From the NCBI GenBank assembly GCA_964412635.1, contig CAYPPQ010000005.1, positions 8,179 to 72,178 on the forward strand: a stretch of 64,000 nt of DNA. The letters run 5' to 3'. Source of the stretch: an uncultured Planctomycetia bacterium. Lineage in GTDB: Bacteria > Planctomycetota > UBA8108 > UBA1146. Under the pieces are notes generated by a model. The model did no database searches. It worked only from the letters and a program-made list of their open reading frames with translations, and was not told where the DNA came from. The position numbers were made by a program, and so were the translations under genes. Shown here one piece after another: positions 165 to 61,833 of the stretch (the first letter of the stretch is position 1; the number at the start of each line of letters is the position of its first letter).

Positions 165-1514
165 ATGAAACAGCAACGAGTCCATGCTCAGGCCAGATCC
201 GCAATTCTGGTCGCTAGCATCCTGGTCTTCATTCCAGCCGCTCTCTTTGCAGGGGGTGGTGGATACACCATGTCATTTACCGGTGGCTCCGTCGCGCAAG
301 GCGGGCTCACATCGGTAGACCTCAGTCTCACCCATTCAGCTCCCACCGGAGTTCAGGGCTTCTCCTTCGGTGTCTGTCATGATGACACGATGTTGACCCT
401 CGAGCCGCCTGGCACCTCTGCCGATTTCGATTACATGATCGACTGGTCAACCGCCATGGAGACCATCAAGAACGGCAGTGAGCCTGACTTTTTCCAGCAG
501 AACCTCGAGACGGGGGGCTGGACCGTCGGGTGCGTCATCTGCTTCACCTCCTGTGCCGTCATGGATGCCGGTTCCACCCCGATCGGAACCGCTTTTTATC
601 GGGCTGTCGGACCTGCGGGATCCACCACCAGCGTTGGACTGTGTAATGTTCTGGGACTGCCACCGGTCTCCAGCGTCGCCGTGGTACAGGGAGCCTCGAT
701 GCCGATGTCCAGCGACGATGCCACCGTGCAAATCATCGAACAACCACCCACCCTCTTTCACTTCTCTGCTCCGCAGAAACAGGTGAACTACGATCCCCTC
801 GATGGAATTGGCAACTTCTCGACCAAACTGACCATCACCGAGGATCCAGGGAACTCGACATACCCGACCAATACCCAGGGCTTCTCCATGAGCATCGTCG
901 GTGATTCTACATTCGTCACCCCCACCGCAGCTTCCACCACTGGCCCGGTCGCGGCGGCGAATCCTGCATTCGCCGAGACGATCCTCAGTGCCGAAGGATG
1001 GGCGATCGGTGTCGTCTATGCCTTCCAGGTGCCTGTTTACATCCAGTTTGCCGGAGAGACGGACGCCATGTCGATCTCGGGCTCGACGGTAGCATCGGCG
1101 CTGATCGGCGACGAAGTGGGTGTTTCGGTACCACTGAGCTGGCAGAGTGCCGGTTCTCCTCCCATCTACAACGTGGTGACCTCGAATAACGAGAGTGTCA
1201 TCCCGCTGCTGAGCAATGGTGGCCTCAACCTGAACCCTCAAAGTGTTCTCGACTACCTGCGAGGGGATGCCAACGGCGACGGCATCACCAACGTGGCCGA
1301 TGCAATCTGGGAGCTTCAGGAGATCTTCAACAACGGTCCCCAGGGAACCTGCTTCGACTCCAAGGATACTAACGGCGATAGCCTCTTCGATGTCGCTGAC
1401 CCGATCTGGCTCATCACCTACATCTTCAGCGGCGGAGCGGCCCCTCCGAGTCCCTTCCCGAACTGCGGAAATGTCGGAGATCCTCAGGACTGCAACAGCT
1501 ACAACGGTTGCTGA
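165..1514 (+). CDS. Secreted protein with two cohesin-like beta-sandwich repeats and a C-terminal tandem dockerin-like (EF-hand Ca-binding) module ending in a Cys-rich tail
   Basis: ATG at 165 with GGGAGA about 8 nt upstream. N-terminal signal peptide (ILVASILVFIPAALFA). Two internal repeats carry the cohesin-like motif (GVQGFSFGVCHDDTMLTL; QGFSMSIVGDSTFVTP; GGWTVGCV / EGWAIGVV). The C-terminus carries DANGDGITNVADAIWELQEIF and DTNGDSLFDVADPIWLITYIF dockerin-type repeats followed by PNCGNVGDPQDCNSYNGC-COOH. Confidence 0.7.
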   Translation: MKQQRVHAQARSAILVASILVFIPAALFAGGGGYTMSFTGGSVAQGGLTSVDLSLTHSAPTGVQGFSFGVCHDDTMLTLEPPGTSADFDYMIDWSTAMETIKNGSEPDFFQQNLETGGWTVGCVICFTSCAVMDAGSTPIGTAFYRAVGPAGSTTSVGLCNVLGLPPVSSVAVVQGASMPMSSDDATVQIIEQPPTLFHFSAPQKQVNYDPLDGIGNFSTKLTITEDPGNSTYPTNTQGFSMSIVGDSTFVTPTAASTTGPVAAANPAFAETILSAEGWAIGVVYAFQVPVYIQFAGETDAMSISGSTVASALIGDEVGVSVPLSWQSAGSPPIYNVVTSNNESVIPLLSNGGLNLNPQSVLDYLRGDANGDGITNVADAIWELQEIFNNGPQGTCFDSKDTNGDSLFDVADPIWLITYIFSGGAAPPSPFPNCGNVGDPQDCNSYNGC

Positions 1515-4175: not shown

Positions 4176-5192
4176 ATGAAGTTGATTGGCACCCTCACCA
4201 CATTGCTGACATCGCTGATACTGATCAGTGGCTGCGCCTGGACGGAACTCAAAGTGGGTCCGACCGGAGAAGTTGATCGTAAGTTCCACGTGAGATACGT
4301 CACATCGATGAAGGACTGTCCCGTCGGCGAACCGTTCCAGTTATGGATTCCGGTGCCACACAACGACTTGCACCAGCTGGTCGAGGGAATGAAGGTGAGC
4401 GGCCCCACCGAAGGTCATCTCAAGACCGAATCTCGATTCGGGAACACGATGTACTTCTTCGAGGGAGTCTGCACGTCGAAGCAGATGGACTTCACGATCG
4501 AATACGATGTCACTCGACATGTCTACGACGTAAATCTGGGTTCCATGGCAGATGCCACCATCGAGGAGAACCCAGATGCATCGATGGCAAAGTATCTCGC
4601 TCCTTCGTCTCTATGCTACATCACACCACAGGTGAAGGCGGAAGCAGCGGAACTCGCAGAAGGTAAATCCTCCGTCATCGAGATCACCCGGGCCTTCTAT
4701 GATCACATCCTCGACAAGATGGCCTACGACAAGAACCATCAGGGCTGGGGTAGAGGCGACATCGCTCACGCCTGTGATGTCGGAAAAGGAAACTGCACGG
4801 ACTTCCACACCTACTTCAACGCGTTGTGTCTTTCCAGCGGCATCCCCTCCCGCTTCCAGATTGGAATGTGGGGAAGGTATCAGACTGAACTCGGTGAGTA
4901 CCAGACCGGTGGCTATCACTGCTGGGCCGAATTTCATGTGCCCGGTCATGGCTGGGTTCCAGTGGATATCTCGGAAGCTGACAAGGACACACCGCTCAAC
5001 AAGGATCAATACTTTGGACGGCAAAGTGGAAACCGTGTCACGCTCAGCAGCGGACGGGATATCGTCCTGATGCCCCAGCAGTCCGGTACTCCACTGAACT
5101 ATTTCGTGAATCCCTACGCCGAAATCGCCGGTAAGGCATTTCAACACGTCAACAAGCGGTGCTTCTGGACCGACCTCAGCGGAAGTGAGTAA
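4176..5192 (+). CDS. Transglutaminase-like cysteine protease family lipoprotein
   Basis: Lipobox LISGCAW. Transglutaminase-core Cys/His/Asp motifs (GKGNCTDFHTYFNALCLSSGIPSRF ... GYHCWAEFHVPGHGWVPVDISEA). Confidence 0.75.
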   Translation: MKLIGTLTTLLTSLILISGCAWTELKVGPTGEVDRKFHVRYVTSMKDCPVGEPFQLWIPVPHNDLHQLVEGMKVSGPTEGHLKTESRFGNTMYFFEGVCTSKQMDFTIEYDVTRHVYDVNLGSMADATIEENPDASMAKYLAPSSLCYITPQVKAEAAELAEGKSSVIEITRAFYDHILDKMAYDKNHQGWGRGDIAHACDVGKGNCTDFHTYFNALCLSSGIPSRFQIGMWGRYQTELGEYQTGGYHCWAEFHVPGHGWVPVDISEADKDTPLNKDQYFGRQSGNRVTLSSGRDIVLMPQQSGTPLNYFVNPYAEIAGKAFQHVNKRCFWTDLSGSE

Positions 5193-5195
5193 CAG

Positions 5196-5432
5196 ATGAA
5201 TCAGGAACCGAAATCGGTAGATGACAAGCCTGTCGTGATGGAACTGGAAGCGGGCAAGCACGCCTGGTGCAGTTGTGGGCTCTCTTCCAAACACCCCTTC
5301 TGTGACGGTTCCCATGCGGGCACCGGCAACGCTCCCGTCGTCTTTGAACTGGAGGAATCTCGCAAGGTGGCACTGTGTGCCTGCAAGAAGACCTCCGGTG
5401 CTCCCTTCTGTGACGGCTCTCACTCTTCCTGA
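5196..5432 (+). CDS. CDGSH-type iron-sulfur domain protein (two CDGSH motifs)
   Basis: WCSCGLSSKHPFCDGSH and LCACKKTSGAPFCDGSH, two zf-CDGSH motifs in 78 aa. Starts 3 nt after the stop of the upstream gene, so it is likely co-transcribed. Confidence 0.8.
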   Translation: MNQEPKSVDDKPVVMELEAGKHAWCSCGLSSKHPFCDGSHAGTGNAPVVFELEESRKVALCACKKTSGAPFCDGSHSS

Positions 5433-5576
5433 CGCGCTGCAGGAGAGCCTCTGGACCCGGGGTGGTCGGTAGAAGCGACACCCCGGCCCCCTTATCATCG
5501 CGGTTCTGCTGATTTGCTCCCGGTCCCATCGGACCGCGGCTTCGAACAGATCTCACACGATGATTGGGTGATTCAT

Positions 5577-8207
5577 ATGAAAACGGTTACCGTCCTCGCT
5601 CTCGGTCTCATCGCGGGAATCTGCTACGCTCACGATCCTCACGACGACATCCCACCGCCATTTCTGGCCATCGATAAGATCGAGCAGGAAGATCCCTTCC
5701 GACAGCTCGATGATGTGCTTCCCACCCCCACCGAATCTCGACTCGCATCCGGAGCTCCTGGTCCCGAGTACTGGCAGCAACAGGTCGATATGGATATCGA
5801 CGTCAAGCTCGATGCGGTCAATCACCGACTCGAGGGCAATGAACATGTCACCTACCACAACAACTCACCCCACACCCTCACCTACCTGTGGATGCAACTC
5901 GATCAGAATCGATTCCGTGACAACTCCATAGGAAGGCTCTCCGATGCAGGCGGCATGGAAGATGAACAGAGCATTCGATGGCTAAGAAGGCTCGCATTCC
6001 AGGACCAGTTCGAGGGGGGTTACGAGATCACGAGCGTGCTGGGAGCGAACGGGGCCGAACTTTCACACACCATCGTCGATACCATGATGCGCATCGATCT
6101 ATCCTCTCCACTCAAACCGGGAGAGAGCCTCGAGTTCGATGTTTCGTGGAACAACTCCATCGTCAATGCCGACCTCCTCCGTGCCCGCGGCGGCTACGAG
6201 TGGTTCGAGGAAGCCGGCAACGCCATCTACGAGATCGCTCAGTGGTTTCCGAGGATGTGCGCTTACACCGACTACGCCGGGTGGCAGAACAAACAGTTCA
6301 TCGGCAGTGGCGAGTTCACCCTGGAGTTCGGGAATTACAAGGTTGCCATCACCGTTCCCGACACTTTCGTGGTCAGCGCAACTGGAACCCTGAGCAATCA
6401 GGGAGAGGTACTCACCTCCCTGCAGTCGGAACGTCTGATCGAAGCTTCTACCTCGAATCGTCCCGTCTTCATCATCTCTCCGGAAGAAGCACTCGAAAAC
6501 GAGAAGAAGCAATCCTCCGGAGAGAAGACATGGATCTTCGAGGCGGAAAATGTTCGTGACTTCGCCTGGGCTGCCTCACCCAAGTTCATCTGGGATGCGA
6601 TGGGAGTCACCATCCGTGGAGGACAGACTCCGATGGCGATGTCCTTCTATCCCAATGAAGGGGAACCTCTGTGGAGTCGTTATTCGACCCATGCCGTGGC
6701 ACACACCCTCGAGGTCTACTCGCAGATCAGCATTCCATATCCGTACCCCGTGGCCATCAGTGTCAACGGCCCGGTCGGGGGGATGGAATATCCGATGATC
6801 TGCTTCAACGGCCCTCGCCCTGAAGAGGACGGGACCTACTCGATCAGAACCAAGTATGGACTCATCGGAGTCATCATTCATGAAGTGGGACACAACTGGT
6901 TCCCGATGATCATCAACTCCGATGAAAGACAGTGGACCTGGATGGATGAAGGTCTCAACACCTTCGCGCAATTCGTCACGGAACAACTGTGGGAAGAGAA
7001 GTACCCTTCTCGTCGCGGTGAAGCGCGCAACATCACCGGCTTCACGACCAGTACCGACCAGATGCCGATCATGACCAACAGCGAACAGCTGATTCAGTTC
7101 GGAAATAACGCCTACGCCAAGCCTGCCACGGCATTGAACATCCTGAGGGAAAGCGTACTGGGTCGCGAACTGTTCGACTTCGCCTTCAGGAAGTACTCCG
7201 AGAGATGGGCATTTCGTCGACCTGAACCTGCCGATCTTTTCAGAACACTCGAAGATGCCAGTGGCATCGACCTCGACTGGTTCTGGCGTGGCTGGTTCTA
7301 CACCACTGATCATGCCGACATCGCTGTCGACCGGGTGGTTCGATTTCACCTGGACACCGGAAACCCCGATGTAGAGAAGCCTCTCCAGAAGGCGGAAAGG
7401 GACGCCGATCCCGAGTGGATCAGCCGAACCAGGAACGAAGGAGTGACGCTGCGGTCGCAGCGTTATCCTGAACTGCTCGATTTCTACAACTCATTTGATG
7501 AGATGGAAGTTACCGAGGGCGATCGAAGAGCCTATGAACGCTTCATCGGTCGTCTTGAAGATGGAGATGCCGAGTTACTCCAGCGGCCATGGAACTTCAC
7601 CGTGATTCGCCTCAGGAACTACGGAGGCCTGGTGATGCCAGTTCCTCTGAAGTTGGTCTTCGCCTCGGGAGAAGAGCAGCTGGTACGGCTTCCTGCAGAA
7701 CTGTGGAGATCCAATCCCAGGGTGATCTCTCGCCTGCTCGTCACCGACGAACCGGTGGTCAGGGTAGAGGTTGACCCCCTCCTCGAGATCGCCGACGCCG
7801 ATCGCAGTAACAACATCTTCCCGCAAGAGATCGATCAGCAACGATTCAAGATCCGCCCGGATTCCGATCGATCCAATCCGATGCAACGTCACCGAGACGA
7901 GTTACTTCGCATCGAGGCACAGATCGCCGCCAGTCGATTGGGGCGGGAAATCGCCTCTCGTATTCAAGCTCGAGAGGTTGGTACACCGGTTCCAGCAGCG
8001 GCGAAGTTACTCGGTGATCTCCAGCAAGATACGCTGGTTGATCCATTCGGAGAGCAGCTCTCCGTCTTCGACATCTCTGAAGATGAGGGACTCGCCCGCA
8101 TCGTCAGTGTCGGGCCCGACGGAGAAGCGGGTACAGGAGATGACATCACGTGGATTCTCAGATCGGATGGAAGCATCGAGGAAGTCACCGAGCGGAGTGA
8201 TCGCTAA
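5577..8207 (+). CDS. M1-family (gluzincin) zinc metallopeptidase, secreted
   Basis: GMEYPMI (GxMEN-like exopeptidase motif), HEVGHNWF (HExxH) and WMDEGLNTF (third zinc ligand Glu). Start moved to ATG at MKTVTVLALGLIAGICYA (signal peptide). The track start at 5514 is an upstream alternative codon. Confidence 0.85.
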   Translation: MKTVTVLALGLIAGICYAHDPHDDIPPPFLAIDKIEQEDPFRQLDDVLPTPTESRLASGAPGPEYWQQQVDMDIDVKLDAVNHRLEGNEHVTYHNNSPHTLTYLWMQLDQNRFRDNSIGRLSDAGGMEDEQSIRWLRRLAFQDQFEGGYEITSVLGANGAELSHTIVDTMMRIDLSSPLKPGESLEFDVSWNNSIVNADLLRARGGYEWFEEAGNAIYEIAQWFPRMCAYTDYAGWQNKQFIGSGEFTLEFGNYKVAITVPDTFVVSATGTLSNQGEVLTSLQSERLIEASTSNRPVFIISPEEALENEKKQSSGEKTWIFEAENVRDFAWAASPKFIWDAMGVTIRGGQTPMAMSFYPNEGEPLWSRYSTHAVAHTLEVYSQISIPYPYPVAISVNGPVGGMEYPMICFNGPRPEEDGTYSIRTKYGLIGVIIHEVGHNWFPMIINSDERQWTWMDEGLNTFAQFVTEQLWEEKYPSRRGEARNITGFTTSTDQMPIMTNSEQLIQFGNNAYAKPATALNILRESVLGRELFDFAFRKYSERWAFRRPEPADLFRTLEDASGIDLDWFWRGWFYTTDHADIAVDRVVRFHLDTGNPDVEKPLQKAERDADPEWISRTRNEGVTLRSQRYPELLDFYNSFDEMEVTEGDRRAYERFIGRLEDGDAELLQRPWNFTVIRLRNYGGLVMPVPLKLVFASGEEQLVRLPAELWRSNPRVISRLLVTDEPVVRVEVDPLLEIADADRSNNIFPQEIDQQRFKIRPDSDRSNPMQRHRDELLRIEAQIAASRLGREIASRIQAREVGTPVPAAAKLLGDLQQDTLVDPFGEQLSVFDISEDEGLARIVSVGPDGEAGTGDDITWILRSDGSIEEVTERSDR

Positions 8208-8213
8208 CGAAGA

Positions 8214-10340
8214 TCACTCCGACTGGATCTCCACCACCTCTTCGATCACTTCACCGTCCAGCACCATGGCGGTGAAGGGGTCGACGGGGAGGAATCCATT
8301 CAGATCTGGAATCACTACCAGGTATTGACCGGGTTCACTGACCAGAATGCGATAACCATTGCCGGTCCTTCCTCGAGTGACTACCGCTCCATCGTGGCCG
8401 ATCGCTTCGACCGATGGATGCCAGGCGAGATCCCAGGGAACCGATGTTCCTGCTTCCTCGAGATACAACCTCATCCCCACTGCTGGCTCCAGTTCGAGAA
8501 CGAATTCATTGGGGCCTTGCAAGGTGACTTCGACTTGCTGATGGGTAGGCCGATAGTTCACATCGGAACAGGAAATGATCATGTTTCCGACCGGAGCCTG
8601 GAACATGAACAGGCCATTGACGCCGGATCCGACGGGAACCGCCCCGGCTCCAGGAGTACCTGGTGGTCGAACCGGTGCCCAGCGGATCAAGCTGGGAAAT
8701 GCATTCCCCGATCCATCTTCCAGGACCGCCTGCACCGTGACATCCACTGCCGCAGGCAATTCGATACTGGCATCGAGCAGGCCATCTTCGGTTACCTCGA
8801 AGAGGCCACCGACCCCCACCGGGAGAACCAGGATACTGAAGGTGCCAGGCTTCACCTGGACCGGGCCCCACTCCCACAAGAAACCTCCAGCGACGGAGGT
8901 ACTCTGCATGGTGTTGCTGTACACCTCGATGGTGTCGTTGATCGGATCGGTTCCCGGTCCGGTGGGACGCACTCGCACCGAGAAGTTCTCGAGATCCCAT
9001 CCTTCCGGAATGTAGACGGACCCGGCCAGGTCGACACGCTCCTCGTCATCGAGGGGAATCTCCAGTTCCAGATCGAGAAGACCCTCTGCTTCCAGATCGA
9101 AGGCGACTTCATCAAAGACCTCTGGTTGATGTGCCCAGTGCCCTGATTCCAGCGTGGCGGTCCAGGAGCCCGGGAGCAATCCCTCTAGCAACTTCTCCGT
9201 GACCCCGGTGACGGGGATCTCGGAGTGGGGGGATCCGATTCTTCCTTGCTCGCGAATCCGCAGGACCACACCCTCTCGCTCGACATCTCCAAAGATGCGG
9301 ATCATCGTCGATCCGCTCCTCTCAAGACTCAGTTCCCGCTCACCACCTGCCACCAGGTCCACCGTGATCCGTCGCCACTGATGTCCTGCGGCCCTGGCAT
9401 GAATCGCAACGGCAGAACCGATCGATCCGATTCGACCATCGAGCGCCACTGGACTCTCATCCGTGACGATCTGTGCATCCTGAGGCAAACTCCAGCCGGG
9501 ATGCGGAAGAGAACTCCTCGAATAATCCTGAACCCGGATCACTTCGATGTTGGTGAGGGGCTCCCCCGTTTCTGCAGATCTCAGGTGCAACATCGTCAAG
9601 GCGTCGTATCGAATGATGATTCGCAGATTGCCGGCGGCGCTGGCACGAATCGCACCCGATGGTGCAACCACTCTCGCAGGACGAGTCGCGAGGACCGCCC
9701 CGAAGAACTCGATCGTTCCGTTCTTGTCGATCAGCGTGTTGAACCTGCCGCCAGAGACAGGAATCGACCTCGAGCCTGCTGCGGTGCCGATCTGCAACTG
9801 TCCGGAGACCTGGAGAAGTGATGCAGGAGCCTCCTCCAGCACGAGTTCCCCCATCACCCTGGCCATCCCATCGGGAACCGGTTGCTGGGAACCTCTTCCG
9901 TTCGGATTACTCGATCCCCTGCCGTTTCTGGAACCGGTGGATCCGTTACTTCCGCGGCGATCTCCACCGTCATCCCGTGAAGCGTTTCCTTGCTGGTCGA
10001 TTCCTGGTTCGCTTCTTCCTCCTGAAGATGGATCGTTGGTCCGGGCGGCGTTACCGCTCTCGTCACCGAAGCGTCTCGCATTCCCATCGGGACCGGAGTC
10101 GGAACCACCGCCACTGCGGGCACTACTGCTTCCGTTGCCAGATGTTCCTGAAGTTCGAGATGACCCGGAACCGGGCAGATCGATACCGGGGTCACCACCG
10201 TCGTCGACTCCCGCCACGCCACTGCCCACGCCCTCCGGTATATCGCTGAAGCCAGGTCCATCGTCGGAGAGGAGTATCACCATCACCAGGACGATGATCA
10301 GCATGATAGAGGCGGTGATGATCAGGATGCGCGGATTCAA
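8214..10340 (-). CDS. Hypothetical signal-anchored protein with a long Gly/Ser/Asn/Arg/Asp-rich disordered linker and a beta-rich C-terminal domain
   Basis: TTG start with a GAGGAG SD 8 nt upstream. N-terminal TM helix (ILIITASIMLIIVLVMVILL) followed by about 150 aa of low complexity (SGSSRTSGTSGNGSSSARSGGGSDSGPDGNARR...). Confidence 0.55.
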   Translation of the reverse strand: MNPRILIITASIMLIIVLVMVILLSDDGPGFSDIPEGVGSGVAGVDDGGDPGIDLPGSGSSRTSGTSGNGSSSARSGGGSDSGPDGNARRFGDESGNAARTNDPSSGGRSEPGIDQQGNASRDDGGDRRGSNGSTGSRNGRGSSNPNGRGSQQPVPDGMARVMGELVLEEAPASLLQVSGQLQIGTAAGSRSIPVSGGRFNTLIDKNGTIEFFGAVLATRPARVVAPSGAIRASAAGNLRIIIRYDALTMLHLRSAETGEPLTNIEVIRVQDYSRSSLPHPGWSLPQDAQIVTDESPVALDGRIGSIGSAVAIHARAAGHQWRRITVDLVAGGERELSLERSGSTMIRIFGDVEREGVVLRIREQGRIGSPHSEIPVTGVTEKLLEGLLPGSWTATLESGHWAHQPEVFDEVAFDLEAEGLLDLELEIPLDDEERVDLAGSVYIPEGWDLENFSVRVRPTGPGTDPINDTIEVYSNTMQSTSVAGGFLWEWGPVQVKPGTFSILVLPVGVGGLFEVTEDGLLDASIELPAAVDVTVQAVLEDGSGNAFPSLIRWAPVRPPGTPGAGAVPVGSGVNGLFMFQAPVGNMIISCSDVNYRPTHQQVEVTLQGPNEFVLELEPAVGMRLYLEEAGTSVPWDLAWHPSVEAIGHDGAVVTRGRTGNGYRILVSEPGQYLVVIPDLNGFLPVDPFTAMVLDGEVIEEVVEIQSE

Positions 10341-10392
10341 GGAGATCTCCTCGTGGACGGGTGCGGGGTCATCTTATTGTACCCTTCGACTC

Positions 10393-13305
10393 TCAATTGT
10401 CAGGCCCATGAGATTTGAAGAAATTCAACTGATCACCCTCGCGAATCAACCGGGAAACAATACCTTTTTTCAGGTCAATCGACATCTTCTTTCCCGAATC
10501 CTCCAGCGTCAATGACACATCTCTTTTCGGGTGAAGTGTCAACTCCTGCACCTTGTGATCTTCCCACCGAAGCGAGACCTCGACCCCAAATCGGGTACGG
10601 AGTCCGTGACAAGATCCTTTACTCCAGGCGGGGGGAAGAGCCGGCAGCAGCTGCAGCATCGAGCCATGCGATTGCAGCAGTGCTTCGGCGACGCCAGCGG
10701 TGGCACCGAAATTCCCATCGATCTGGAAGGGAGGATGATCATCGAGAAGATTGGGCAAGGTCGACCTGGCAAGTTGCAGTTGAAGACTCTCCTGAACCTT
10801 CTTCCCATCCCCCAACCTGGCAAAGAAATTTAGCAACCATGCTCGACTCCAACCGGTGTGTCCTCCTCCATGAGAGAGTCGATACTCGATGGAACGGCGT
10901 GCCGCTTCGATCAGATCGGGAGTATCTATCCGGTTCCACTCCTCGCCGGGATACAGGGCGTAAAGGTGGCTGATGTGGCGATGTCCAGGTTCAACCTCCT
11001 GCCACGGTCTTGACCATTCCATGATCCTTCCGTCACTACCGATGCTGGTCGTGGCAAGATTGCCCAGGGCGGCCCTGACCGCAGCGACCACTTCATCGTC
11101 GATCTCGAGGATCTCTGCACTGGAGAGGGTCATGGTGAACAGGTCTCGGATGATTTGCTGGTCCATCGCATTGCCCATGCCCACATCTGCGGTCTGCCCA
11201 TCGGGAGTACGGTAGGAGTTTTCCGGTGAAGATGAGGGACCACTGACCAGTTCACCCGTCACTGGATCCTTCACCAGGTAATCGCAGAAGAACTCGCTTG
11301 CTCCTCGAAGTACCGGCCATGCCCGTTCGCGCAAGAACTCCTCATCGCCACCGTACTGGTAATGCTCCCACAGATGTCTGCACAACCATGCTCCTCCCAG
11401 GGGCCACATCCCCCATACGGTCCTTCCGATGGGAACGGTGAATGCATGAACATCACTGGTATGGTGTGCGACCCAACCGGGAGCATCGTAGAGTTCGCTC
11501 GCCGTCTCTTCTCCTCGTACCACGAGTTTCTCGATGAAGTCGAAGAGCGGTTCATGACACTCCGCCAGATTGGTGACCTCCGCCGGCCAGTAGTTCATCT
11601 GCAAGTTGATGTTGATGTGATAGTCAGCATTCCATGGAGCGGCGATGTGAGGACTCCAGATCCCCTGCAGATTGGCGGGCAATGCTCCCCGCCTCGATGA
11701 CGAGATCAGTAGATATCTCCCGAACTGGAAGAAGGTAGCGATCAGATCCCGGTCCTCATCTCCATTGCGCACCGAGGCCAGCCTGACATCGGTGGGGATC
11801 GACCGTTTCGACTCTCCACCGAGATCGATGGATACTCTCGACATCAACGCCCTGTGATCGGCTCCCTGAACCGTCCTCAACTTCTCGTACATCCCCCGGG
11901 GATCGATGGGATCGGCGCTGGCGAAGTGGAGATTCTGTAACAACTTCTCATCGAGACCCTGATCGGCAGCACTGTCGGCGGTGATGAGGATCAGCACCGA
12001 ATCGGCACCGATCACGGAGATTTTCTGACCGCTCGTCTTCAACAACCCACCTGCAGTGACGACACTCATCTGGCATTCGAAAAACGATCCGGGATGCTCA
12101 TCGCCATGGGAGGCACGGCCACCAAACCTGACCCATGCGCGATTCCCGTCGACACGGATCGGTTCAAGAATCTTTCCATTCACCTGCCGAGACAGTCCCA
12201 CATCGATGGAAATCGACGCTGGCTGATCCGCATCGAGTAGCGTGGCGAGGCACTCATCAGGCTTGCTGGCAATTACCCTTCGGCGATATTGAACACCCTT
12301 CGAGTCATACTCGATGGTGACCTCCGCCTCGTCGAGATCGAGCCAGCGGCGATAATCACGCAACTCGGAGAGACCTGACTGATCGATCTCGAGATCCGCC
12401 AGCGTCTGGTACGAGCGGGTCCAGCGAGGAGACATGAATTCCTTCTGGACCAGTTTCTGCGCCTCCACCACCTCGCCCTCGAAGATCAACTCGCGGGCCC
12501 GATCCAGATGTACGTGAGCCCCCCGACGAACTCTACGGGCGGGAGATCCCGCCCAGATTCCATCTTCGTTGAGCTGGATCTTCCACTTACGGGGTTCGCC
12601 GTAGACCATTCCACCGAGCCGACCATTGCCCACCGGCAGTCCACGAGTCCACTCACTACCGGCAGGATCTCGATACCAGATCAGGTGGTCCCCCTCCGGT
12701 CGCTTCGCCAGTCCCAGCGTACGCAGTGCGCCGCCGGGACCGGTGGCACCCTCCCCTTGCGTCGCAAGGTACTGTCGAGCGAGCAGCGTCGCCTGCAGAG
12801 AACCGACAGGAACTGGCCAGTCCTTCCAGGATGGGTCATCTCCCCTTCGCCCCAGCCAGGTTCCGCCGTCCAGCGGTAGCTTCCCATCGGGACCGAGAAG
12901 AAAGACGCTGCCCGATGTGATGCCGCCATTACCGCCGGTATCGACGACACGGATTGCGATGAGGTTGGCTCCCGGAACGACCAGCTGTCCCGGAATCGTG
13001 TAACGACGATCGTTGTTCCAGCCCTTGCCCTCACCGATCTTTTCGCCGTTGAAATAGGTCTGATCCTGATCATCGATTCCCCCGGCATGGAGGACCAGGT
13101 CCTCTCCCACCCACGTCTCCGGGAGGATCACGTAAGCCTTCAGCCATGCCGTGCCGTCGTAGGCACCGAAGCTCTTCTCCCACGCACCGACCACCTCCAC
13201 CGGGGTCCAGCCCTCTTCCACATCGAGAGATCTGGCGGTGATGTTGTCGACGGGAATGAAGAACGAGAAAGAGAGCAGGACCGAAAGCAGCTTCATCGAT
13301 GACAT
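10393..13305 (-). CDS. Glycoside hydrolase family 95-like (alpha-L-fucosidase family) with an N-terminal galactose-binding-like domain
   Basis: GGAGGA SD followed by ATG (MSSMKLLSVLLSFSFF, signal peptide). N-terminal jelly-roll-like region (WLKAYVILPETWVGEDLVLHAGGIDDQDQTYFNGEKIG). Catalytic-region motif WNADYHININLQMNYWPAEVTNL resembles the GH95 (alpha/alpha)6 domain signature. Confidence 0.65.
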   Translation of the reverse strand: MSSMKLLSVLLSFSFFIPVDNITARSLDVEEGWTPVEVVGAWEKSFGAYDGTAWLKAYVILPETWVGEDLVLHAGGIDDQDQTYFNGEKIGEGKGWNNDRRYTIPGQLVVPGANLIAIRVVDTGGNGGITSGSVFLLGPDGKLPLDGGTWLGRRGDDPSWKDWPVPVGSLQATLLARQYLATQGEGATGPGGALRTLGLAKRPEGDHLIWYRDPAGSEWTRGLPVGNGRLGGMVYGEPRKWKIQLNEDGIWAGSPARRVRRGAHVHLDRARELIFEGEVVEAQKLVQKEFMSPRWTRSYQTLADLEIDQSGLSELRDYRRWLDLDEAEVTIEYDSKGVQYRRRVIASKPDECLATLLDADQPASISIDVGLSRQVNGKILEPIRVDGNRAWVRFGGRASHGDEHPGSFFECQMSVVTAGGLLKTSGQKISVIGADSVLILITADSAADQGLDEKLLQNLHFASADPIDPRGMYEKLRTVQGADHRALMSRVSIDLGGESKRSIPTDVRLASVRNGDEDRDLIATFFQFGRYLLISSSRRGALPANLQGIWSPHIAAPWNADYHININLQMNYWPAEVTNLAECHEPLFDFIEKLVVRGEETASELYDAPGWVAHHTSDVHAFTVPIGRTVWGMWPLGGAWLCRHLWEHYQYGGDEEFLRERAWPVLRGASEFFCDYLVKDPVTGELVSGPSSSPENSYRTPDGQTADVGMGNAMDQQIIRDLFTMTLSSAEILEIDDEVVAAVRAALGNLATTSIGSDGRIMEWSRPWQEVEPGHRHISHLYALYPGEEWNRIDTPDLIEAARRSIEYRLSHGGGHTGWSRAWLLNFFARLGDGKKVQESLQLQLARSTLPNLLDDHPPFQIDGNFGATAGVAEALLQSHGSMLQLLPALPPAWSKGSCHGLRTRFGVEVSLRWEDHKVQELTLHPKRDVSLTLEDSGKKMSIDLKKGIVSRLIREGDQLNFFKSHGPDN

Positions 13306-13391
13306 GATTCCTCCTACGGCTGACAGGATGCACCTCACTGGCGAGGGTTCCAAGCCCCTGTGACGGCATTCTCGAGGAGAAGGTCTTCTTG

Positions 13392-13432
13392 CAAAAAAAG
13401 GAGGTCCAGACACCTCGGTGTCTGGACCTCCT
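13392..13432 (-). terminator. Rho-independent terminator of the thioredoxin-like gene
   Basis: Perfect 15-bp stem GGAGGTCCAGACACC / GGTGTCTGGACCTCC with a 3-nt loop, followed on the minus strand by T7 (A7 on the plus strand at 13393-13399). Confidence 0.75.
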
Positions 13433-14039: not shown

Positions 14040-14092
14040 CGGCCGCATCCTTTCAGGTTGCAAGATCCTGTGTGGATCCTGATCAGTGGAAA

Positions 14093-15073: not shown

Positions 15074-15186
15074 CTTGGAACTCCATCGGATATCGGATCT
15101 TTGGCGGCGCGAACTGCTCACACGAACTCCCGTACTGTAGCATGATCTGAAGATACTGGCTGTATCGTTGCCACGGTGGAGGATTG

Positions 15187-18379: not shown

Positions 18380-19264
18380 TCAGGGACACCCGGGAAAAAC
18401 GACACAATCGAGGGCGTCGCCGGTGGGATCGAATCCACACGCCGGATAGGGAGGCGCTGGTGACGGAGTCCCGGCACAGAAAATTGTACACAACACCGTC
18501 ACCGCATCGGTGATGTTGATGGTGCCCGTGTCGTTGGCGTCGAGGGCATCGAGGCAATCGGATGGGGTGGCATTGAAGAGGTAATCGAGGACCTGGATTC
18601 CATCGACGAGGTCGAGGGATCCGTCTCCACTGGCATCCCCGCGGATCAGCATCGGGCCGTCGTGGGGGATGAGGGTCACAGTTCCATCGACGGTGGTAGG
18701 CACGAAACTGGCCCCGTCGAGGACCAGCACGTTCTCCACCGGTGGTTCTCCAAGAGTGTTGATGAAGGAGAGGCTGGTGACGGTGGCCGTGGTAGCTCCG
18801 GTGAGAGGACCATCCAGAAGCTGATAATCGACGGTACACATCGGCGTCTCCACCTCGAAGGTCACGGTCCAGCCTCCGACGAAACTCAGTACCACGCCCT
18901 GGGTAACGCCCTCCGGGTAGAAATTCACCTGATCGAAATCGATCTCTTCCCCCATCGGCTCCGGCATCGTCGTCGTCAAATCGGTTGCTAGCATCAGGGT
19001 CGGGTCATTTCCAAGATCGATGGAATACCCGGCACAGGGAGCAAATGTCGCCCCGGAGATCTGCTGCACCGTCACATCGGCACTGAAGCCGAAGGCAGCG
19101 GGGTTCGCCGCCGCATAGTCGACACTCGCTCCGGTGACACGCAGTTCGAAGTCGGAGCCAACCTGGCCATTCAAGTGGTTACCTGGAAGCCCCAGGATCA
19201 CCATCAAGGCCACCAGCGGAACCAACTGGAGAGAACTGTAAACGCTGAATTTCTTGTTCATCAT
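18380..19264 (-). CDS. Secreted protein with a cohesin-like module and a C-terminal dockerin-like module
   Basis: AAGGGAG SD followed by ATG-ATG (MMNKKF...), 14 nt after the stop of the upstream gene. Signal peptide. Cohesin-like motifs (AAFGFSADVTV, GGWTVTFEV). C-terminus carries RGDASGDGSLDLVDGIQVLDYLF and DANDTGTINITDAVTVLCTIF followed by the tail ACGFDPTGDALDCVVFPGCP-COOH. Confidence 0.65.
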   Translation of the reverse strand: MMNKKFSVYSSLQLVPLVALMVILGLPGNHLNGQVGSDFELRVTGASVDYAAANPAAFGFSADVTVQQISGATFAPCAGYSIDLGNDPTLMLATDLTTTMPEPMGEEIDFDQVNFYPEGVTQGVVLSFVGGWTVTFEVETPMCTVDYQLLDGPLTGATTATVTSLSFINTLGEPPVENVLVLDGASFVPTTVDGTVTLIPHDGPMLIRGDASGDGSLDLVDGIQVLDYLFNATPSDCLDALDANDTGTINITDAVTVLCTIFCAGTPSPAPPYPACGFDPTGDALDCVVFPGCP

Positions 19265-19278
19265 GCTCAGCTCCCTTT

Positions 19279-22272
19279 CTATGGACACGGGGTATTACTC
19301 GACGGAGTCGGGTCTCCACCTGCCACATCGAAGGGTGGAGGAGGTGGCGGCGAATCGTCGATGAAGAGGTAGTTCAACACGAAGATCGGATCTCCGATAT
19401 CGATCAGGTTGTCGTCGTTGGCATCGAGGCGCGCCTCGCACTCCGGCCTCTCCAGTGGAGGCTGTCCGGCGGGGGTGATCACCATGCCGAGGATCGAGAT
19501 GGCATCGCCGATGTCGATCAGGTTGTCTTCATTGGCATCGGCCCGGATGAAGGAACCGGTGGCCTGGATCTCGTACACCGTGCCATCGGTGTTTCCAGCC
19601 ACCACGAAGTTCTCCCCATCGAAGAGGATTCCCCCGGGGTCGTCGATGGCCGCCAGGCTGATCCCCTCGCCGACCTGGGTCGCCACTCCGCCGGAGACGG
19701 TCACCTCGATGATCTCGAGGCTGCCATCCGGCTTGACGCTGGTGATGTAGAGCGGCAACGGCCCGCAGCCAACGAAACCGGTGGTGGGACAGCGTCCAGA
19801 GGTGCATCCCTTCTGCTGCGCTCCCTCATTGGGGTGCTCGAAGGAACTACCGGAATCGATGCCACCATCCCCTTCATGGGCTATGCCGTAGATCTCACAG
19901 GTGTCGGGACCGGTGACATACAGCGTCTCCGTCTCGGGATTGAAGCCCATCCCCCCCGACTTCCCCTCGATGGCACCGGGGAGGAACTTGTTGCCGCCAC
20001 CGGGTGCCCACGGAGATGGGTTGTAGACAAAGTAATTGCGGAGGAATTCACCCTGACGTGTCATCTCCATCAGGTGCATCTGGCCACCGGAATTGCCGTT
20101 GCCCACCACCAGCGAACCGTTGCCCGCATCTCCGTCAGGGATGTAGGCGATGCCGGTCACCGGCACGTTCTCCTCGAAGGGACTCGGCACCACCGCCAGC
20201 ACCTGGAAATCCTCGCCGAGGGCGTAGATCTGCCCGTTGAGTGAATCGGTGGCGTAGTAGAACACCTCTCCGCTGCCCTCGGGAGGCTCTGGAAACACCG
20301 CGGTGATGTCGTAGATCTCCGTCAACATGCCAACGCTGCCGGGGATCTCGATGGGGGTCTCCGTCTCCGTCTCGCCACTTCCCACGACGATGGTGGTCTG
20401 CAGACAGCCACTGCCACCGCCATCCAGGATGACGATACCAGTGTAGGTGTGAGTCCCCTCCGGCACATCGGTATCGATCCAGGAGAACTCGCCGGCAGGA
20501 ACCTCCACGGGATTCCCCTCGACCCCGTCGCTGGTGCGGGTGAGCTGGTAGAAATCGGGGACATTCCCCGCCGGGTCACTCCAGGTCCATGACACCTCGA
20601 CGAAGTGATTGTCGTCGATGATCACGCTGGAGAGACTGTTCATCGGCGGGATGTAGAGGGGATCCACATCGGATGGGTCACTACTGGCATCGTAGGGATT
20701 CGATCCCTGCGCCAGTTCATCGATGTTGGAGTACTGGTCGCCGTCGTCATCGTCATCGGGGAAGGCGTGGGCCACCGGCACCGCGGCGGAGTGCTCCGTC
20801 AGCAGGATCGTCTCGCCGGGGAAGGTGAGGTCGACCCCGGTGGCGCTGCCATCGGCGTTGTAGGATGTGAGGGTACCGTCGCCGCTTCCCGGCTCCTGGC
20901 CGGCGATCCACAGCTGTCGATCTCCATCCCAGGCGATGTCATCGACACCGCGGGGGTGGGTGATGACGGGTCCCAGGAGCAGCGCATCATTGAAATCGTA
21001 ATCGCCCATCAATACCTGGTTGGCGGAGGGATTGAGGATGGCCAGACGATCGACGCGGAACTCCCCCCCCCCGATGATGGTTCCCACCATGCGGGTCGGG
21101 GCGATGGCGGGCGGCAGTTCGCAGCTCGAGGCCATCGATCCATCGGCCATGCGCCTCTCGATGCGATCGGTGAAGAGCAGGAACACCGATCCGTCCGGAC
21201 CCGCTACCAGGTCGCGAATGGTATTTCCCGAACCCATGCTGACGATCACCACCGGACTGCCATCGGACTGGATGCGAGCCAGGGTGGTGCCCACGGCAAT
21301 CCAGCTGGTGTTTCCGGTTCCGACCGCATAGTGGAAGGAATCGCCCGGATTCCCCACCGAGATTCCCAACGGCTGCGCCCCTCCCAGGACTCCATCTTCG
21401 GGAGAATCACCGGCACCATCTCCGCCGTACAGCACCGTTCCATCGGGGTGCAGTACCTGGATGCCGTCAGGGGCGATGACGAAGACCCCATCCCCTCCCA
21501 GCGGTCCGAGTCCGATGGGATTCGGTCCGGTCGAGCAGACGATCTTCGGCTGGGGGTTGATCCCGACGCGGCACAGCGTCTGGGTTTCCGCCATCAGGAT
21601 CCACGTCTCACCACGGGCGTTGACCAGCAGATCGGTCGGGGCACCATCGGCGGTAACCTCCGATTCGACCAGTACTCCATCGGGACTGAAGAAGGAAGCG
21701 GAGCCATCGAAGGCGACGCGCACCCGGTTGGTCGGAGTTCCGTCGTTGATCGGGGTCAAGATGGCCACTCCCCCGGAAATGACATCGGGGATGATCTCCG
21801 AAGCATCGGGGAGGGCGAACACCACATCGGTCACCGGGTCGCCAACGCTTCCGGGAGTCACGGTGGCAAAGGTTCCCTGCGCCGAGGAGTTCGCCTCGTA
21901 ACCGGCCACTGCCACCAGACGCGGGCCACCGGCAGCGATCACTCCCTGCAGTTCGAAGTCGACCAGGACGCCCATCGCCAGCCCTTCGGGGCCAGAGCTG
22001 GTGCCGACGAAATCCGCCACCACAGGTCCTGCATACTCGATGAAGATGGGGGTCAGGCCCCCGGGAGCGTGAATCAGCCCGAAGGAGAACGCCACGATGT
22101 CGACATCGTTCTGGATCAGTACCGCAAGGGGTACCGTCGATCCGGCGACCGCTGCTGCGCTCTCCACCGAGACACTATTTTGAGCCGTCGCGGGGGAACC
22201 GAGACAGACCATCCACAGGAACAGAAGAATCGCGCAAGTCCGACGACTTCGGCGTTGTCTCTGCACATTCAT
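19279..22272 (-). CDS. Large secreted protein with a cohesin-like N-terminus, beta-propeller (NHL/YVTN-like) and FN3-like modules, and a C-terminal dockerin-like module
   Basis: ATG with GGGGAGGG SD. Signal peptide (ILLFLWMVCLGSPATA). Cohesin-like AGSTVPLAVLIQNDVDIVAFSFGLIHAPGGL. Repeated propeller blades. C-terminus carries DANEDNLIDIGDAISIL and DANDDNLIDIGDPIFVLNYLF followed by a poly-Pro stretch and ...GGDPTPSSNTPCP-COOH. Confidence 0.7.
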   Translation of the reverse strand: MNVQRQRRSRRTCAILLFLWMVCLGSPATAQNSVSVESAAAVAGSTVPLAVLIQNDVDIVAFSFGLIHAPGGLTPIFIEYAGPVVADFVGTSSGPEGLAMGVLVDFELQGVIAAGGPRLVAVAGYEANSSAQGTFATVTPGSVGDPVTDVVFALPDASEIIPDVISGGVAILTPINDGTPTNRVRVAFDGSASFFSPDGVLVESEVTADGAPTDLLVNARGETWILMAETQTLCRVGINPQPKIVCSTGPNPIGLGPLGGDGVFVIAPDGIQVLHPDGTVLYGGDGAGDSPEDGVLGGAQPLGISVGNPGDSFHYAVGTGNTSWIAVGTTLARIQSDGSPVVIVSMGSGNTIRDLVAGPDGSVFLLFTDRIERRMADGSMASSCELPPAIAPTRMVGTIIGGGEFRVDRLAILNPSANQVLMGDYDFNDALLLGPVITHPRGVDDIAWDGDRQLWIAGQEPGSGDGTLTSYNADGSATGVDLTFPGETILLTEHSAAVPVAHAFPDDDDDGDQYSNIDELAQGSNPYDASSDPSDVDPLYIPPMNSLSSVIIDDNHFVEVSWTWSDPAGNVPDFYQLTRTSDGVEGNPVEVPAGEFSWIDTDVPEGTHTYTGIVILDGGGSGCLQTTIVVGSGETETETPIEIPGSVGMLTEIYDITAVFPEPPEGSGEVFYYATDSLNGQIYALGEDFQVLAVVPSPFEENVPVTGIAYIPDGDAGNGSLVVGNGNSGGQMHLMEMTRQGEFLRNYFVYNPSPWAPGGGNKFLPGAIEGKSGGMGFNPETETLYVTGPDTCEIYGIAHEGDGGIDSGSSFEHPNEGAQQKGCTSGRCPTTGFVGCGPLPLYITSVKPDGSLEIIEVTVSGGVATQVGEGISLAAIDDPGGILFDGENFVVAGNTDGTVYEIQATGSFIRADANEDNLIDIGDAISILGMVITPAGQPPLERPECEARLDANDDNLIDIGDPIFVLNYLFIDDSPPPPPPFDVAGGDPTPSSNTPCP

Positions 22273-22516
22273 CTTTGCACCCTCCCCGGGGTCTCCGACC
22301 CCGATTCAAGAGTTCTTGTATCCACGTTTTCCGAGGGTGAATTTCCGGGAATCTGGCGACATCCACGCACGATCAAGCGCGCCAGGATCATGGAAATCCA
22401 GCGTTCACAACGGTTTGGCGGAAATACCCTCAACACTTCATTGTACGGTGAGATCCGGATCGAGAAAGGACCCGGACCGATAACCCGATATTCCCTGCAA
22501 AATTGCCGGAAAAAGG

Positions 22517-58894: not shown

Positions 58895-58903
58895 GCTGTG
58901 CCC

Positions 58904-60034: not shown

Positions 60035-61606
60035 TCAGGGGCAGTCGGTGTAGGTCAAGCACTCCAGCGGCTCCGCTGTGGTTGGATCGGTTCCACAACT
60101 GGTGGGTGCCGGCAACGGACTTGCCGGAGATCCGAACATCCAGGAGAGCACTGCGACGGCATCCGCAACATCGATGACCCCATCGTCGTTCCCGTCGCAG
60201 GCGTCCTCGCATTCCAGCGTCGGCGGTACCGGAACGGGAAACAGTGAGATCAACAAGTTGACCGCGTCGGCGAGGTTGATCACTCCGTCGGTGTTGCAAT
60301 CACCACGTACGAACTGCGCCGCAGCGGGCAATTCGCTCCGCAGCGTCGGTCGATCAAAGGGAAAGGTCTCGTTGGCCACCCGTGGATCGGTCAGCCCGTT
60401 GGTGAGGAACTCGACCACGGCCGGTTGCCACTGCAAAGGTAAAGACATGTCGCTGTAGACGGTAGATGCGCCTGGAGAACCTCCGGAGCTGGGGATCGGA
60501 GACTGATCGGCGCTGAACTGGGTGTGGCCGCTTAGCGGATCAAGAAGGGGCCATGCAGGGGCGTTGTAGTAATCGATGGCATCCTGCACACCGGTCACCC
60601 ATCCCACATGCATCTGGGCCGGTCGCAGACTCGCATTCCTGAGAGTTGGCGTCTTGAAACTGCCCCGGTGTGCCACATCACCGGTGACATTGTATCTCCC
60701 GAGGTCATCAGAGGACGGGCGAAGGCCGATGTTGTAGAACTCGTTGTCGGTGAAGAGCGGCAAGGTGTGGCAACTGAAACACGCAGTACTTCCCTCCAGA
60801 ACATTGAACCCCGCCTGTTGTTGCTGGGTCATCGTACCGAGGTCGAAGGGCGTCTGGTCGGGGATCAGCGTCCGTTCGTAGGTGGCGATGGCAAAGGCGA
60901 TTCGCTCGGCGGTGATCTCCGCAGATCCGAAGGCAGCTTCGAACAGGTCGGGGTAGTCGATGCTCCCCACCAGGGTTGCAGCAACATCCGCAGGCAAGTC
61001 GGTGCCGAGTGCAAGCGGTACCACAAGCTCCATCTTCGCCACCAGATCATCCCAGGTGCGACCTTCGAAGGCCATCTCCACGTCGCTGAGAAGTGGTCCG
61101 ACCGCCTGACTCTCCAGAGCTCCTCCGCTGGCGATGCTCACCTCTCCCGTCTGTGGATTGATGAATGTGCCGCTGGCGCGGCCATCCCAGAACATCTCCG
61201 GAGCCCATTGCGATCCGATGACAGGCTGAGCAGAGCGGCCTGTCACCTGAACCTCGAAGTCGAAGAGAGGATCCAGGAGCGGATTGCCCAGTAGATCTGC
61301 ACGGGCGACCCCCGGGGAACCGACGATGTCATCGTCGGTCCCGAACAACCCATCGGGACCGGGGTGCGTACCGAGCCTGGGATCAGCCCCGCCGGCGTTC
61401 GGCCGATGACAGGTACCGCAGGCGACGGTGTCATCGCTCGAGAGCTGTTCATCCCAGAACAGGATCTTGCCGAGGATACGCTTCTCTTCCGTCGGAGGAT
61501 TCTCTGCGGGAAAGGGAACGGGAGGGAGTTGCCCTACGACCGCTGTCGAGCAAATCAGACATTGGACTACAACCAGGATGGCTACAAACCTCGCACTCAA
61601 TTGCAT
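60035..61606 (-). CDS. Di-haem cytochrome c peroxidase (CCP/MauG family) fused to a C-terminal dockerin-like module
   Basis: GAGGGAGAG SD followed by ATG (MQLSARFVAILVV, signal). ILGKILFWDEQLSSDDTVACGTCHRP (haem 1) and ACFSCHTLPLFTDNEFYNIGLRP (haem 2). C-terminus carries RGDCNTDGVINLADAVNLLISLF and DGNDDGVIDVADAVAVLSWMF followed by SCGTDPTTAEPLECLTYTDCP-COOH. Confidence 0.85.
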   Translation of the reverse strand: MQLSARFVAILVVVQCLICSTAVVGQLPPVPFPAENPPTEEKRILGKILFWDEQLSSDDTVACGTCHRPNAGGADPRLGTHPGPDGLFGTDDDIVGSPGVARADLLGNPLLDPLFDFEVQVTGRSAQPVIGSQWAPEMFWDGRASGTFINPQTGEVSIASGGALESQAVGPLLSDVEMAFEGRTWDDLVAKMELVVPLALGTDLPADVAATLVGSIDYPDLFEAAFGSAEITAERIAFAIATYERTLIPDQTPFDLGTMTQQQQAGFNVLEGSTACFSCHTLPLFTDNEFYNIGLRPSSDDLGRYNVTGDVAHRGSFKTPTLRNASLRPAQMHVGWVTGVQDAIDYYNAPAWPLLDPLSGHTQFSADQSPIPSSGGSPGASTVYSDMSLPLQWQPAVVEFLTNGLTDPRVANETFPFDRPTLRSELPAAAQFVRGDCNTDGVINLADAVNLLISLFPVPVPPTLECEDACDGNDDGVIDVADAVAVLSWMFGSPASPLPAPTSCGTDPTTAEPLECLTYTDCP

Positions 61607-61833
61607 CGATACTCTCCCTCGAAAACAATCTGGCTGGATCGGACGTGTGTAGAACATTGAAGTGTAGTCGCAAGCGCACGATCTGCGCAGGAAAAACAGC
61701 AGGAGTTCCAGTATTGCACATGTTCAATACAATTGATTACCCGGTAACCCTGTATAGTCCCAGAGATCCCAGCGTGGGGATCGGAGATTTTTTCGGACGA
61801 TGAGTTCAGCGATATACTCGGGATGAGGTAGCG

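Follow-up and report, generated by a model that had tools for sequence, protein, structure and literature searches.

What is the cysteine-rich tail that closes four proteins encoded in a stretch of DNA from an uncultured Planctomycetia bacterium? The stretch, 64,000 nucleotides of contig CAYPPQ010000005.1 (hereafter the window), was analysed over its full length; the four proteins, here called P1 to P4, each end in two dockerin-like repeats, a proline-rich stretch and the tail. An earlier note on the same DNA had taken the tail for a short conserved C-terminal cassette ending in Cys-Pro-COOH, and had suggested that it serves as a sorting or processing signal or as a disulfide or metal clamp. 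We find that the tail is the C-terminal ~30 residues, or last third, of a ~88-residue dockerin-type module typical of uncultured Planctomycetota. It is likely to be the disulfide-stapled part of this module, a covalent clasp on a non-cellulosomal dockerin that would dock the carrier proteins to cohesin-like domains.

The module in the four window proteins

Each of the four proteins has two F-hand repeats (D-x-[NS]-x-[DT]...[DN]..D), with Ca2+ ligands at loop positions 1, 3, 5, 9 and 12 of both tandem repeats, followed by the proline-rich stretch and then the tail; examples of the repeats are DCNTDGVINLAD / DGNDDGVIDVAD in P4 and DASGDGSLDLVD / DANDTGTINITD in P2. In a six-frame regular-expression search of the window, such paired repeats were restricted to the open reading frames (ORFs) of P1 to P4. 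A hidden Markov model (HMM) of the module was built from a 43-sequence alignment, A2, that includes no window sequences; among 916 stop-to-stop segments it matches exactly these four proteins (E 3e-30 to 1.9e-23), and the next best match has E>2. A tail-only HMM of 31 positions, likewise built without window sequences, places the tails of P2, P4, P1 and P3 in its top four ranks, in that order, and because of its E-values (listed below) we regard the tails of P2 and P4 as canonical and those of P1 and P3 as divergent. The P1 tail aligns to this model over its Pro-rich/CG part only.

Pairwise identity among the four window modules is only 36-43%, which together with the match to a window-free profile rules out chance similarity or recent duplication of the four modules. 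The shared arrangement of two repeats, proline-rich stretch and Cys tail is thus real and recurrent, as the earlier note had described it, and all four C-termini and the gene coordinates given there are correct. That description was incomplete in two respects: it missed the Cys between the two repeats, which the alignment places in all four window proteins and which is invariant in A2, and it left unstated that the genes of P2, P3 and P4 lie on the minus strand, with P1 on the plus strand. The features are as follows.

165..1514, + strand: P1 gene, from its translation 449 residues with a signal peptide, two cohesin-like domains and a C-terminal dockerin-type module
255..1241, + strand: tandem cohesin-like domains of P1, about residues 31-192 and 195-359, from BLASTP to the P2 domain, with the fold inferred from the P2 model
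1254..1511, + strand: dockerin-type module of P1, residues 364-449, 4-Cys form with C396 (linker), C434 (CG), C443 and C449 (terminal); module HMM E 1.9e-23, HMM positions 1-86
1440..1511, + strand: proline-rich stretch and divergent Cys tail of P1, APPSPFPNCGNVGDPQDCNSYNGC; tail-only HMM E 7.6e-4
18380..19264, - strand: P2 gene, 294 residues from MMNKKF (the ORF reaches 19288), with a signal peptide, a cohesin-fold domain and a dockerin-type module
18644..19153, - strand: cohesin-fold domain of P2, residues 38-207 of the identical protein P0210, from AlphaFold2 blocks with a predicted local distance difference test (pLDDT) of ~80-94 and from Foldseek
18383..18649, - strand: dockerin-type module of P2, 4-Cys form plus an extra VLCxxFC pair, with Cys at module positions 32, 54, 58, 71, 82 and 88; module HMM E 3e-30
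18383..18466, - strand: proline-rich stretch and canonical tail of P2, PSPAPPYPACGFDPTGDALDCVVFPGCP; tail-only HMM E 3.2e-11
19279..22272, - strand: P3 gene, 997 residues with a signal peptide, a large N-terminal region of unknown fold and a dockerin-type module
19282..19551, - strand: dockerin-type module of P3, 2-Cys form (C945, the linker Cys, and C996); module HMM E 1.4e-23, HMM positions 1-82
19282..19353, - strand: proline-rich stretch and reduced tail of P3, SPPPPPPFDVAGGDPTPSSNTPCP; tail-only HMM E 8.6e-3
60035..61657, - strand: P4 gene, 540 residues (the start may be M18, at 61606), with a signal peptide, a di-haem cytochrome c peroxidase/MauG-like enzyme and a dockerin-type module
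60038..60313, - strand: dockerin-type module of P4, 6-Cys form, with C6, C35, C39, C73, C85 and C91 of the module equal to C454, C483, C487, C521, C533 and C539 of the protein; module HMM E 1e-28
60038..60121, - strand: proline-rich stretch and canonical tail of P4, SPLPAPTSCGTDPTTAEPLECLTYTDCP; tail-only HMM E 1.3e-5

By inspection, all four proteins begin with a hydrophobic leader. The enzyme part of P4 matches PF03150 (E 5.6e-34) and TIGR03791 (E 4.9e-33, but below the cutoff of that model).

A family in which the tail belongs to a repeatable domain

A search with the alignment of the four modules returned 59 relatives, mostly metagenome fragments, the named ones being from metagenome-assembled genomes (MAGs) of Planctomycetota; the tail recurs in them, roughly as PPxP[FY]PxCGxDPTxDxLxCx(3-6)C[P]. 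With the 43-module profile, 44,615 proteins among 1.84 billion cluster representatives were matched at E<=1e-3, 25,866 representatives at E<=1e-10 and 710 at E<=1e-30, so the motif, which the earlier note had allowed might be absent from other dockerin-like proteins, is very widespread. Many family proteins hold 2 to 12 copies of the module, and one four-module homologue is named 'dockerin type I domain-containing protein' by NCBI.

Module copies were mapped in the best 150 proteins, a sample biased towards multi-copy proteins. These hold 449 modules, 326 of them complete with the tail, and 199 of the 326 are internal, with over 12 residues between them and the C-terminus. The tail '...C[PA]' runs straight into the 'FxRGD' of the following module in P0061 and P0066, and at the P0061 junction ...CGPDPTPLLSCATYACP is followed immediately by FIRGDANGDG.... 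The internal modules and these direct tandem junctions imply that a free Cys-Pro carboxy-terminus is not a requirement. Four proteins outside the window (P0060, P0061, P0062 and P0066) consist almost wholly of 4-7 tandem full modules, with 2-Cys and 4-Cys tails mixed within one chain.

These counts bear directly on the proposal that the tail acts in sorting or processing, its Cys-Pro end being recognised by a dedicated protease or transpeptidase that would cleave the protein or attach it to the envelope. In 137 of the 150 proteins, and in all four window proteins, the C-terminus does lie no more than 12 residues beyond the last module, and the carriers are very diverse; C-terminal placement is, though, usual for dockerins. 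The tail is essentially never found without the core (339 of 340 tail-model matches fall inside a module match), and its terminal residues vary among family members (C, CP, CR, CE, CAP, CPSP, CPPPDRR and others), with the final Cys lacking in most modules. It is predicted to be ordered, its cysteines covary with a Cys of the core, and no candidate sorting enzyme was found beside any of the four genes. We therefore regard a sorting signal as very unlikely. The Cys-Pro-COOH consensus of the earlier note does not extend to the family, and even the 'CP' that ends P3 aligns with the Cys of the 'DxLxC' motif and not with the final Cys of P1, P2 and P4. The P3 orthologues P0010 and P0029 retain '...DPTP...PCP'.

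Known sorting signals make the same point. PEP-CTERM/exosortase, LPXTG/sortase and GlyGly-CTERM systems resemble the tail in standing at the very C-terminus of many unrelated secreted proteins, and some P4 orthologues carry such a signal-like tail in the same slot. Those signals consist of a short motif, a transmembrane helix and a basic tail, and are removed; the Cys tail has neither the transmembrane nor the basic part, is predicted to be folded and occurs internally in tandem arrays, so the free C-terminal position that is obligate for PEP-CTERM and LPXTG signals is not kept. The four window proteins gave no match to NCBIfam sorting-domain models, and end in ...CP or ...C without a hydrophobic or basic segment. 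The earlier note was right to set the tail apart from PEP-CTERM- and LPXTG-like signals.

The slot itself is best seen in the orthologues of P4. P4 is 92% identical to a protein of the Planctomycetota MAG Co_bin_687 and 73-79% identical to proteins of seven further MAGs, which on sequence grounds places the window in an uncultured Planctomycetota lineage. Orthologues of other Planctomycetota carry a 2-Cys module (L062, L065), those of Phycisphaerales a GC-type dockerin (NF041540; L036, L038, L042, L052), a model named 'anchored', and those of other phyla hydrophobic and basic tails, while some have no appendage. When these alternative C-termini were compared with sorting-signal models, the one pass was that of L068, whose hydrophobic and basic part satisfied a generic C-terminal anchor model. 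The anchor-like tail of L068 and the 'anchored' GC-type dockerin, at the very position of the Cys tail, are the points in this set that speak for a sorting role. Such varied appendages on one peroxidase (L005-L084) indicate that the slot serves interchangeable tethering devices.

One P4 orthologue, 78% identical and with the full 6-Cys module (L009, QNYK01000091.1, and P0001), comes from a MAG labelled 'Bacillota bacterium'. This MAG groups with Planctomycetota MAGs and is probably mis-assigned or contaminated.

Predicted fold and cysteine pairing

An AlphaFold2 model of the P4 module, made with A2, has a mean pLDDT of 88.7 and a predicted template modelling score (pTM) of 0.81, and shows the three-helix dockerin fold, with helices at 14-24, 36-39 and 49-60. 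All of its top 31 Foldseek matches in the PDB are dockerins, many in cohesin complexes (5m2s_B, 4uyp_B, 4fl4_A and 2ccl_B among them), at probabilities of 0.63-1.0 and template modelling (TM) scores on the target of 0.56-0.82 over 54-73 columns. On the Pfam model Dockerin_1 (cutoff 22.9 bits) the family consensus scores 41.1 bits and the multi-module protein P0061 98.3 bits, over residues 4-57 only. These matches bear out the dockerin-like label of the earlier note, and the family would accordingly be classed by sequence with Dockerin_1, the window copies being divergent members.

The module shares with type I dockerins (PF00404) two duplicated F-hand Ca2+-binding loop-helix repeats, three helices and a usual C-terminal place on diverse secreted enzymes. 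The Pfam model and all solved dockerins span ~57-65 residues, whereas the planctomycete module adds the linker Cys and a ~30-residue Pro-rich/GxDPTxDxLxC tail. It also has one to three Cys pairs, whereas the solved dockerins carry non-Cys residues at the linker-Cys position in the alignments shown by a PDB sequence profile search. In that search dockerins match profile positions 1-65 only, and none covers 66-89. Scans of the window proteins and the family consensus likewise found no Pfam or NCBIfam model over the Cys tail, and the literature, searched for a Cys-stapled planctomycete dockerin and for the 'GC-type dockerin', yielded nothing relevant on it. The GC-type dockerin was considered as the identity of the module, since it too is C-terminal and Cys-bracketed ('CPAD...GCP'), has a Cys-Pro end and occupies the same position on the Phycisphaerales orthologues of P4. 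It is shorter, at 67 positions, and lacks the Pro-rich stretch and the GxDPTxDxLxC tail. The P4 module does not match NF041540 and the consensus reaches 17.5 bits against a cutoff of 29, over model positions 12-62 (the core), while the positive control, L036, scores 50.5 bits; this identity was therefore rejected.

The cysteines of the module follow a regular pattern. The last 100 residues of P1, P2, P3 and P4 contain 4, 6, 2 and 6 Cys, all even numbers. Of the two that define the commonest form, the linker Cys is invariant in A2, and at least 90% of its 43 sequences have the 'LxC' Cys. Two later Cys are found in 27 of the 28 A2 modules with a 'CG' Cys and in 0 of 10 with 'xG' (27/1/0/10; Fisher p=2e-8). 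An all-against-all test of Cys-column co-occurrence in 387 non-identical modules associates column 71 ('CG') with the terminal Cys (phi 0.73, p=2e-45), column 33 (linker) with column 82 ('LxC'; phi 0.51, p=3e-14), and column 6 with column 37 (phi 0.63, p=3e-17). Two is the commonest count (202 of 387 modules), followed by four (69), and the count is even in 75%. This pattern indicates that the cysteines are paired, linker with 'DxLxC' and 'CG' with terminal. In the 2-Cys form the linker-LxC pair is the only one possible, and by parsimony the 4-Cys form would add the CG-terminal pair. Since 2-Cys and 4-Cys forms stand side by side within P0061, and differing forms also occur among orthologues of one enzyme, the Cys appear to have been gained and lost repeatedly in pairs.

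The window proteins agree with this picture. In P4 the six module Cys are the sole remainder once the leader Cys and two CxxCH haem motifs are subtracted, and all six are retained in eight orthologues (L005-L012). The P2 alignment shows no variation at the four canonical Cys. The extra pair, 'VLCxxFC', is conserved in P2 and its close orthologues (P0210-P0220) and sits on helix 3 of the core with i/i+4 spacing.

In the P4 module model the tail is ordered (block mean pLDDT 83, 78 and 72), and the strand/bridge state is limited to residues 35 and 85, the linker and LxC Cys, which are probably each other's bridge partner. Taken together, these observations suggest the following arrangement. A type I dockerin core of two Ca2+-binding F-hand repeats is followed by the Pro-rich segment and x-G-x-D-P-T-x-D-x-L-x-C, as the sequence and the predicted fold show. 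The tail would fold back on the core, and the 'LxC' Cys would form a disulfide with the linker Cys (C35-C85 in P4), as Cys invariance, co-occurrence and the model propose. A second disulfide between the 'CG' Cys and the final Cys (C73-C91) would close a terminal loop in the ~30% of modules that have this pair, P1, P2 and P4 included, and C6 and C39 of P4 are a third co-occurring pair.

A metal site, with for example Zn or Fe held by four Cys and the tail acting as a metal clamp, would be a different use of the same residues. P1, P2 and P4 do have four Cys within ~60 residues, the carrier in P4 is a redox enzyme, and at a distance of 3-5 kb from P2 there are genes for DsbD_N and Redoxin proteins, though disulfide handling would explain these just as well. 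The commonest form has two Cys only, the Cys occur in pairs and not as a tetrad, the spacing of the 4-Cys form is not that of a CxxC...CxxC knuckle, and the export leaders favour disulfides. We consider a metal site most improbable; of the disulfide/metal clamp offered in the earlier note, the disulfide half fits both the Cys co-occurrence and the model.

A stabilising role for the tail has a precedent in the dockerin 'intramolecular clasp' (Slutzki et al., 2013; PMC3821032). There the module ends are in contact, residues at positions -1 to -3 before the first Gly meeting residues that follow helix 3, and this contact stabilises the Ca2+-bound fold and assists cohesin binding. An F that is nearly invariant, three residues ahead of the G in FxRGD, and the invariant Pro after helix 3 resemble the aromatic and Pro residues of such clasps, which makes F1 and P70 of the planctomycete module candidate clasp residues. 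Known clasps are non-covalent, made by stacking or salt bridges between the N- and C-terminus (PMC3821032), whereas the link proposed here would be a covalent bond between the inter-repeat linker and an extension at the C-terminus. By analogy, the tail may be the covalent counterpart of this clasp, locking the fold after export to an oxidising compartment.

Putative docking partners, significance and gene neighbourhood

The window also encodes domains to which the module might dock. A full-length model of P2 (pLDDT 73.8 overall, ~80-94 in the N-terminal domain) has an N-terminal beta-sandwich whose top ~30 Foldseek matches in the PDB are all cohesins (5lxv_A at E 1.6e-9; 2vn6_A, 1g1k_A, 1aoh_A, 1ohz_A), with TM scores on the target of 0.6-0.76. 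The nine-stranded cohesin fold is present in this model, and both N-terminal domains of P1 are included through homology to it (BLASTP E 3e-9 and 1e-7). No Pfam or NCBIfam model detects the cohesin-like domains of P1 and P2, even at E<=10, and such 'cryptic' cohesins would escape standard annotation. With a cohesin-fold domain in P2 and homologous domains in P1, both putative docking partners are thus encoded in the window. From this context the module would dock its carrier onto the cohesin-like domains of P1 and P2, which themselves carry the module. At the cell surface, P1 and P2 would then act as the adaptors of a cohesin-dockerin assembly of non-cellulosomal type, with P4, the di-haem peroxidase, and P3 as its cargo.

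The tail might instead be mainly a binding or specificity determinant, with the 2-, 4- and 6-Cys forms representing different docking specificities and not simply stabilising the fold. Its disulfide-closed loop would then belong to the surface facing the partner, be it a cohesin-like domain or some other component of the envelope. Within the P4 orthologue group the linker and tail (P4 residues 509-540) are 72-75% identical, and 100% in the closest orthologue, compared with 63-73% for the dockerin core and ~80% for the peroxidase; the tail is thus as conserved as the core among orthologues, yet differs between the window paralogues. Discrete tail classes also coexist in one genome and even in one protein, and the cohesin-like domains are too divergent for Pfam, so that the interface may be non-canonical. 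In solved complexes, however, the cohesin is contacted by dockerin helices 1 and 3, and the tail is tied to the inter-repeat linker. We think this unlikely as the main function of the tail, and it is in any case compatible with the covalent clasp.

Several points weigh against the covalently clasped dockerin proposed here. Taken singly, the window modules fall below the Dockerin_1 cutoff (P2 14.0 and P4 14.3 bits against 22.9), and P1 and P3 give no match; the Foldseek E-values for the P4 module are modest (0.015-1). In the full-length P2 model, which has a shallow alignment, the pLDDT of the tail is 45-52. The disulfides are predicted rather than observed, and the co-occurrence statistics ignore sequence relatedness and are thereby inflated. 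The Cys count is odd in 25% of the 387 modules, partly from trimming, and the terminal Cys is not seen in 39 of the 117 modules with a CG Cys in this trimmed set. If the two Ca2+ loops of the module sit at its opposite ends, as in dockerins, a direct C6-C39 bond may be geometrically implausible. Ca2+-dependent cohesin binding by the module is proposed from the cohesin-fold domains that the window also encodes, and comparisons of the P3 N-terminus with cohesin-like sequences gave a BLASTP E of 0.05 and an hhalign probability of 4.5%.

Cohesin and dockerin modules on non-cellulolytic proteins of Planctomycetota, with adaptors carrying both, are the basis of the 'planctosome' hypothesis, as set out in the part of that work drawn on here (Andrei et al., 2019; PMC6461901). 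P1 and P2 share this adaptor architecture of cohesin plus dockerin with the proposal. The same part of the work (PMC6461901) concerns freshwater Nemodlikiaceae and peptidases and does not describe the Cys tail, whereas the lineage studied here is apparently marine and one of the proposed cargo proteins is a di-haem peroxidase. The window carriers also differ from those of cellulosomal dockerins in that they are not cellulases.

What is known of dockerins comes mostly from anaerobic producers of cellulosomes, in which Ca2+ and a non-covalent clasp provide the stability. The variant described here comprises tens of thousands of sequence clusters, and seems to be equipped, in addition, with disulfides and with a ~30-residue extension that lies outside the curated models and solved structures. 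We tentatively suggest that a distinct and very abundant class of covalently clasped dockerins, with cohesins invisible to sequence searches, builds extracellular assemblies with redox enzymes in aerobic aquatic Planctomycetota. The discrete tail classes, with 2, 4 and 6 Cys, could set the docking specificity or tie assembly to oxidative folding. As no curated model lies over the tail, current annotation cuts the domain short and overlooks its Cys pattern, and the partner cohesins are missed entirely; domain boundaries in Planctomycetota proteomes would be drawn more accurately if the ~88-residue unit were recognised in full. The analysis also removes the Cys tail from the candidates for a new sorting signal. 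The module of P4 or P3 with the cohesin-like domains of P1 or P2 offers a testable pair for a 'planctosome'-type surface assembly, and the family is a possible source of disulfide-stabilised cohesin-dockerin pairs for protein engineering.

The genes around the four proteins add some minor observations. P3 and P2 share a strand, with P3 upstream and 14 bp between them. P3 is called as a gene likewise on metagenome contigs, and P0210 occurs on 21 such contigs with the same neighbours. The P3-P2 pair is directly downstream of a gene for a 1337-residue AAA_16/TPR (MalT-like) protein (22517-26530; whole span 18380-26530, - strand), and the AAA_16/TPR-P3-P2 arrangement is conserved on the independent metagenome contigs L001-L004. 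An acidic, Asp-rich segment of P3, DDDDDGDQYSNIDELAQGSNPYDASSDPSDVD (residues ~504-539; 20650-20770, - strand), has weak matches to NF041762 and NF042425 and resembles thrombospondin type 3-like Ca2+-binding repeats.

The thiol-disulfide genes near P2 encode a DsbD_N-domain protein (14093-15211) and a Redoxin/AhpC-TSA protein (13488-14063), together at 13488-15211 on the - strand; their closeness to genes of disulfide-rich exported modules may be a coincidence. The neighbourhood also encodes five enzymes that are probably exported and degradative: a GH95 protein (10393-13413, -), an M1 peptidase (5514-8207, +), a transglutaminase-like protein (4176-5192, +), a SASA-family esterase (57506-58894, +) and a sulfatase (61834-63417, +). 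The module is absent from all five (4176-13413 and 57506-63417 of the window). A 143-codon ORF in another frame (1243-1674, +) overlaps the module-coding region of P1 and is probably spurious, of a kind common in DNA of 59% GC.

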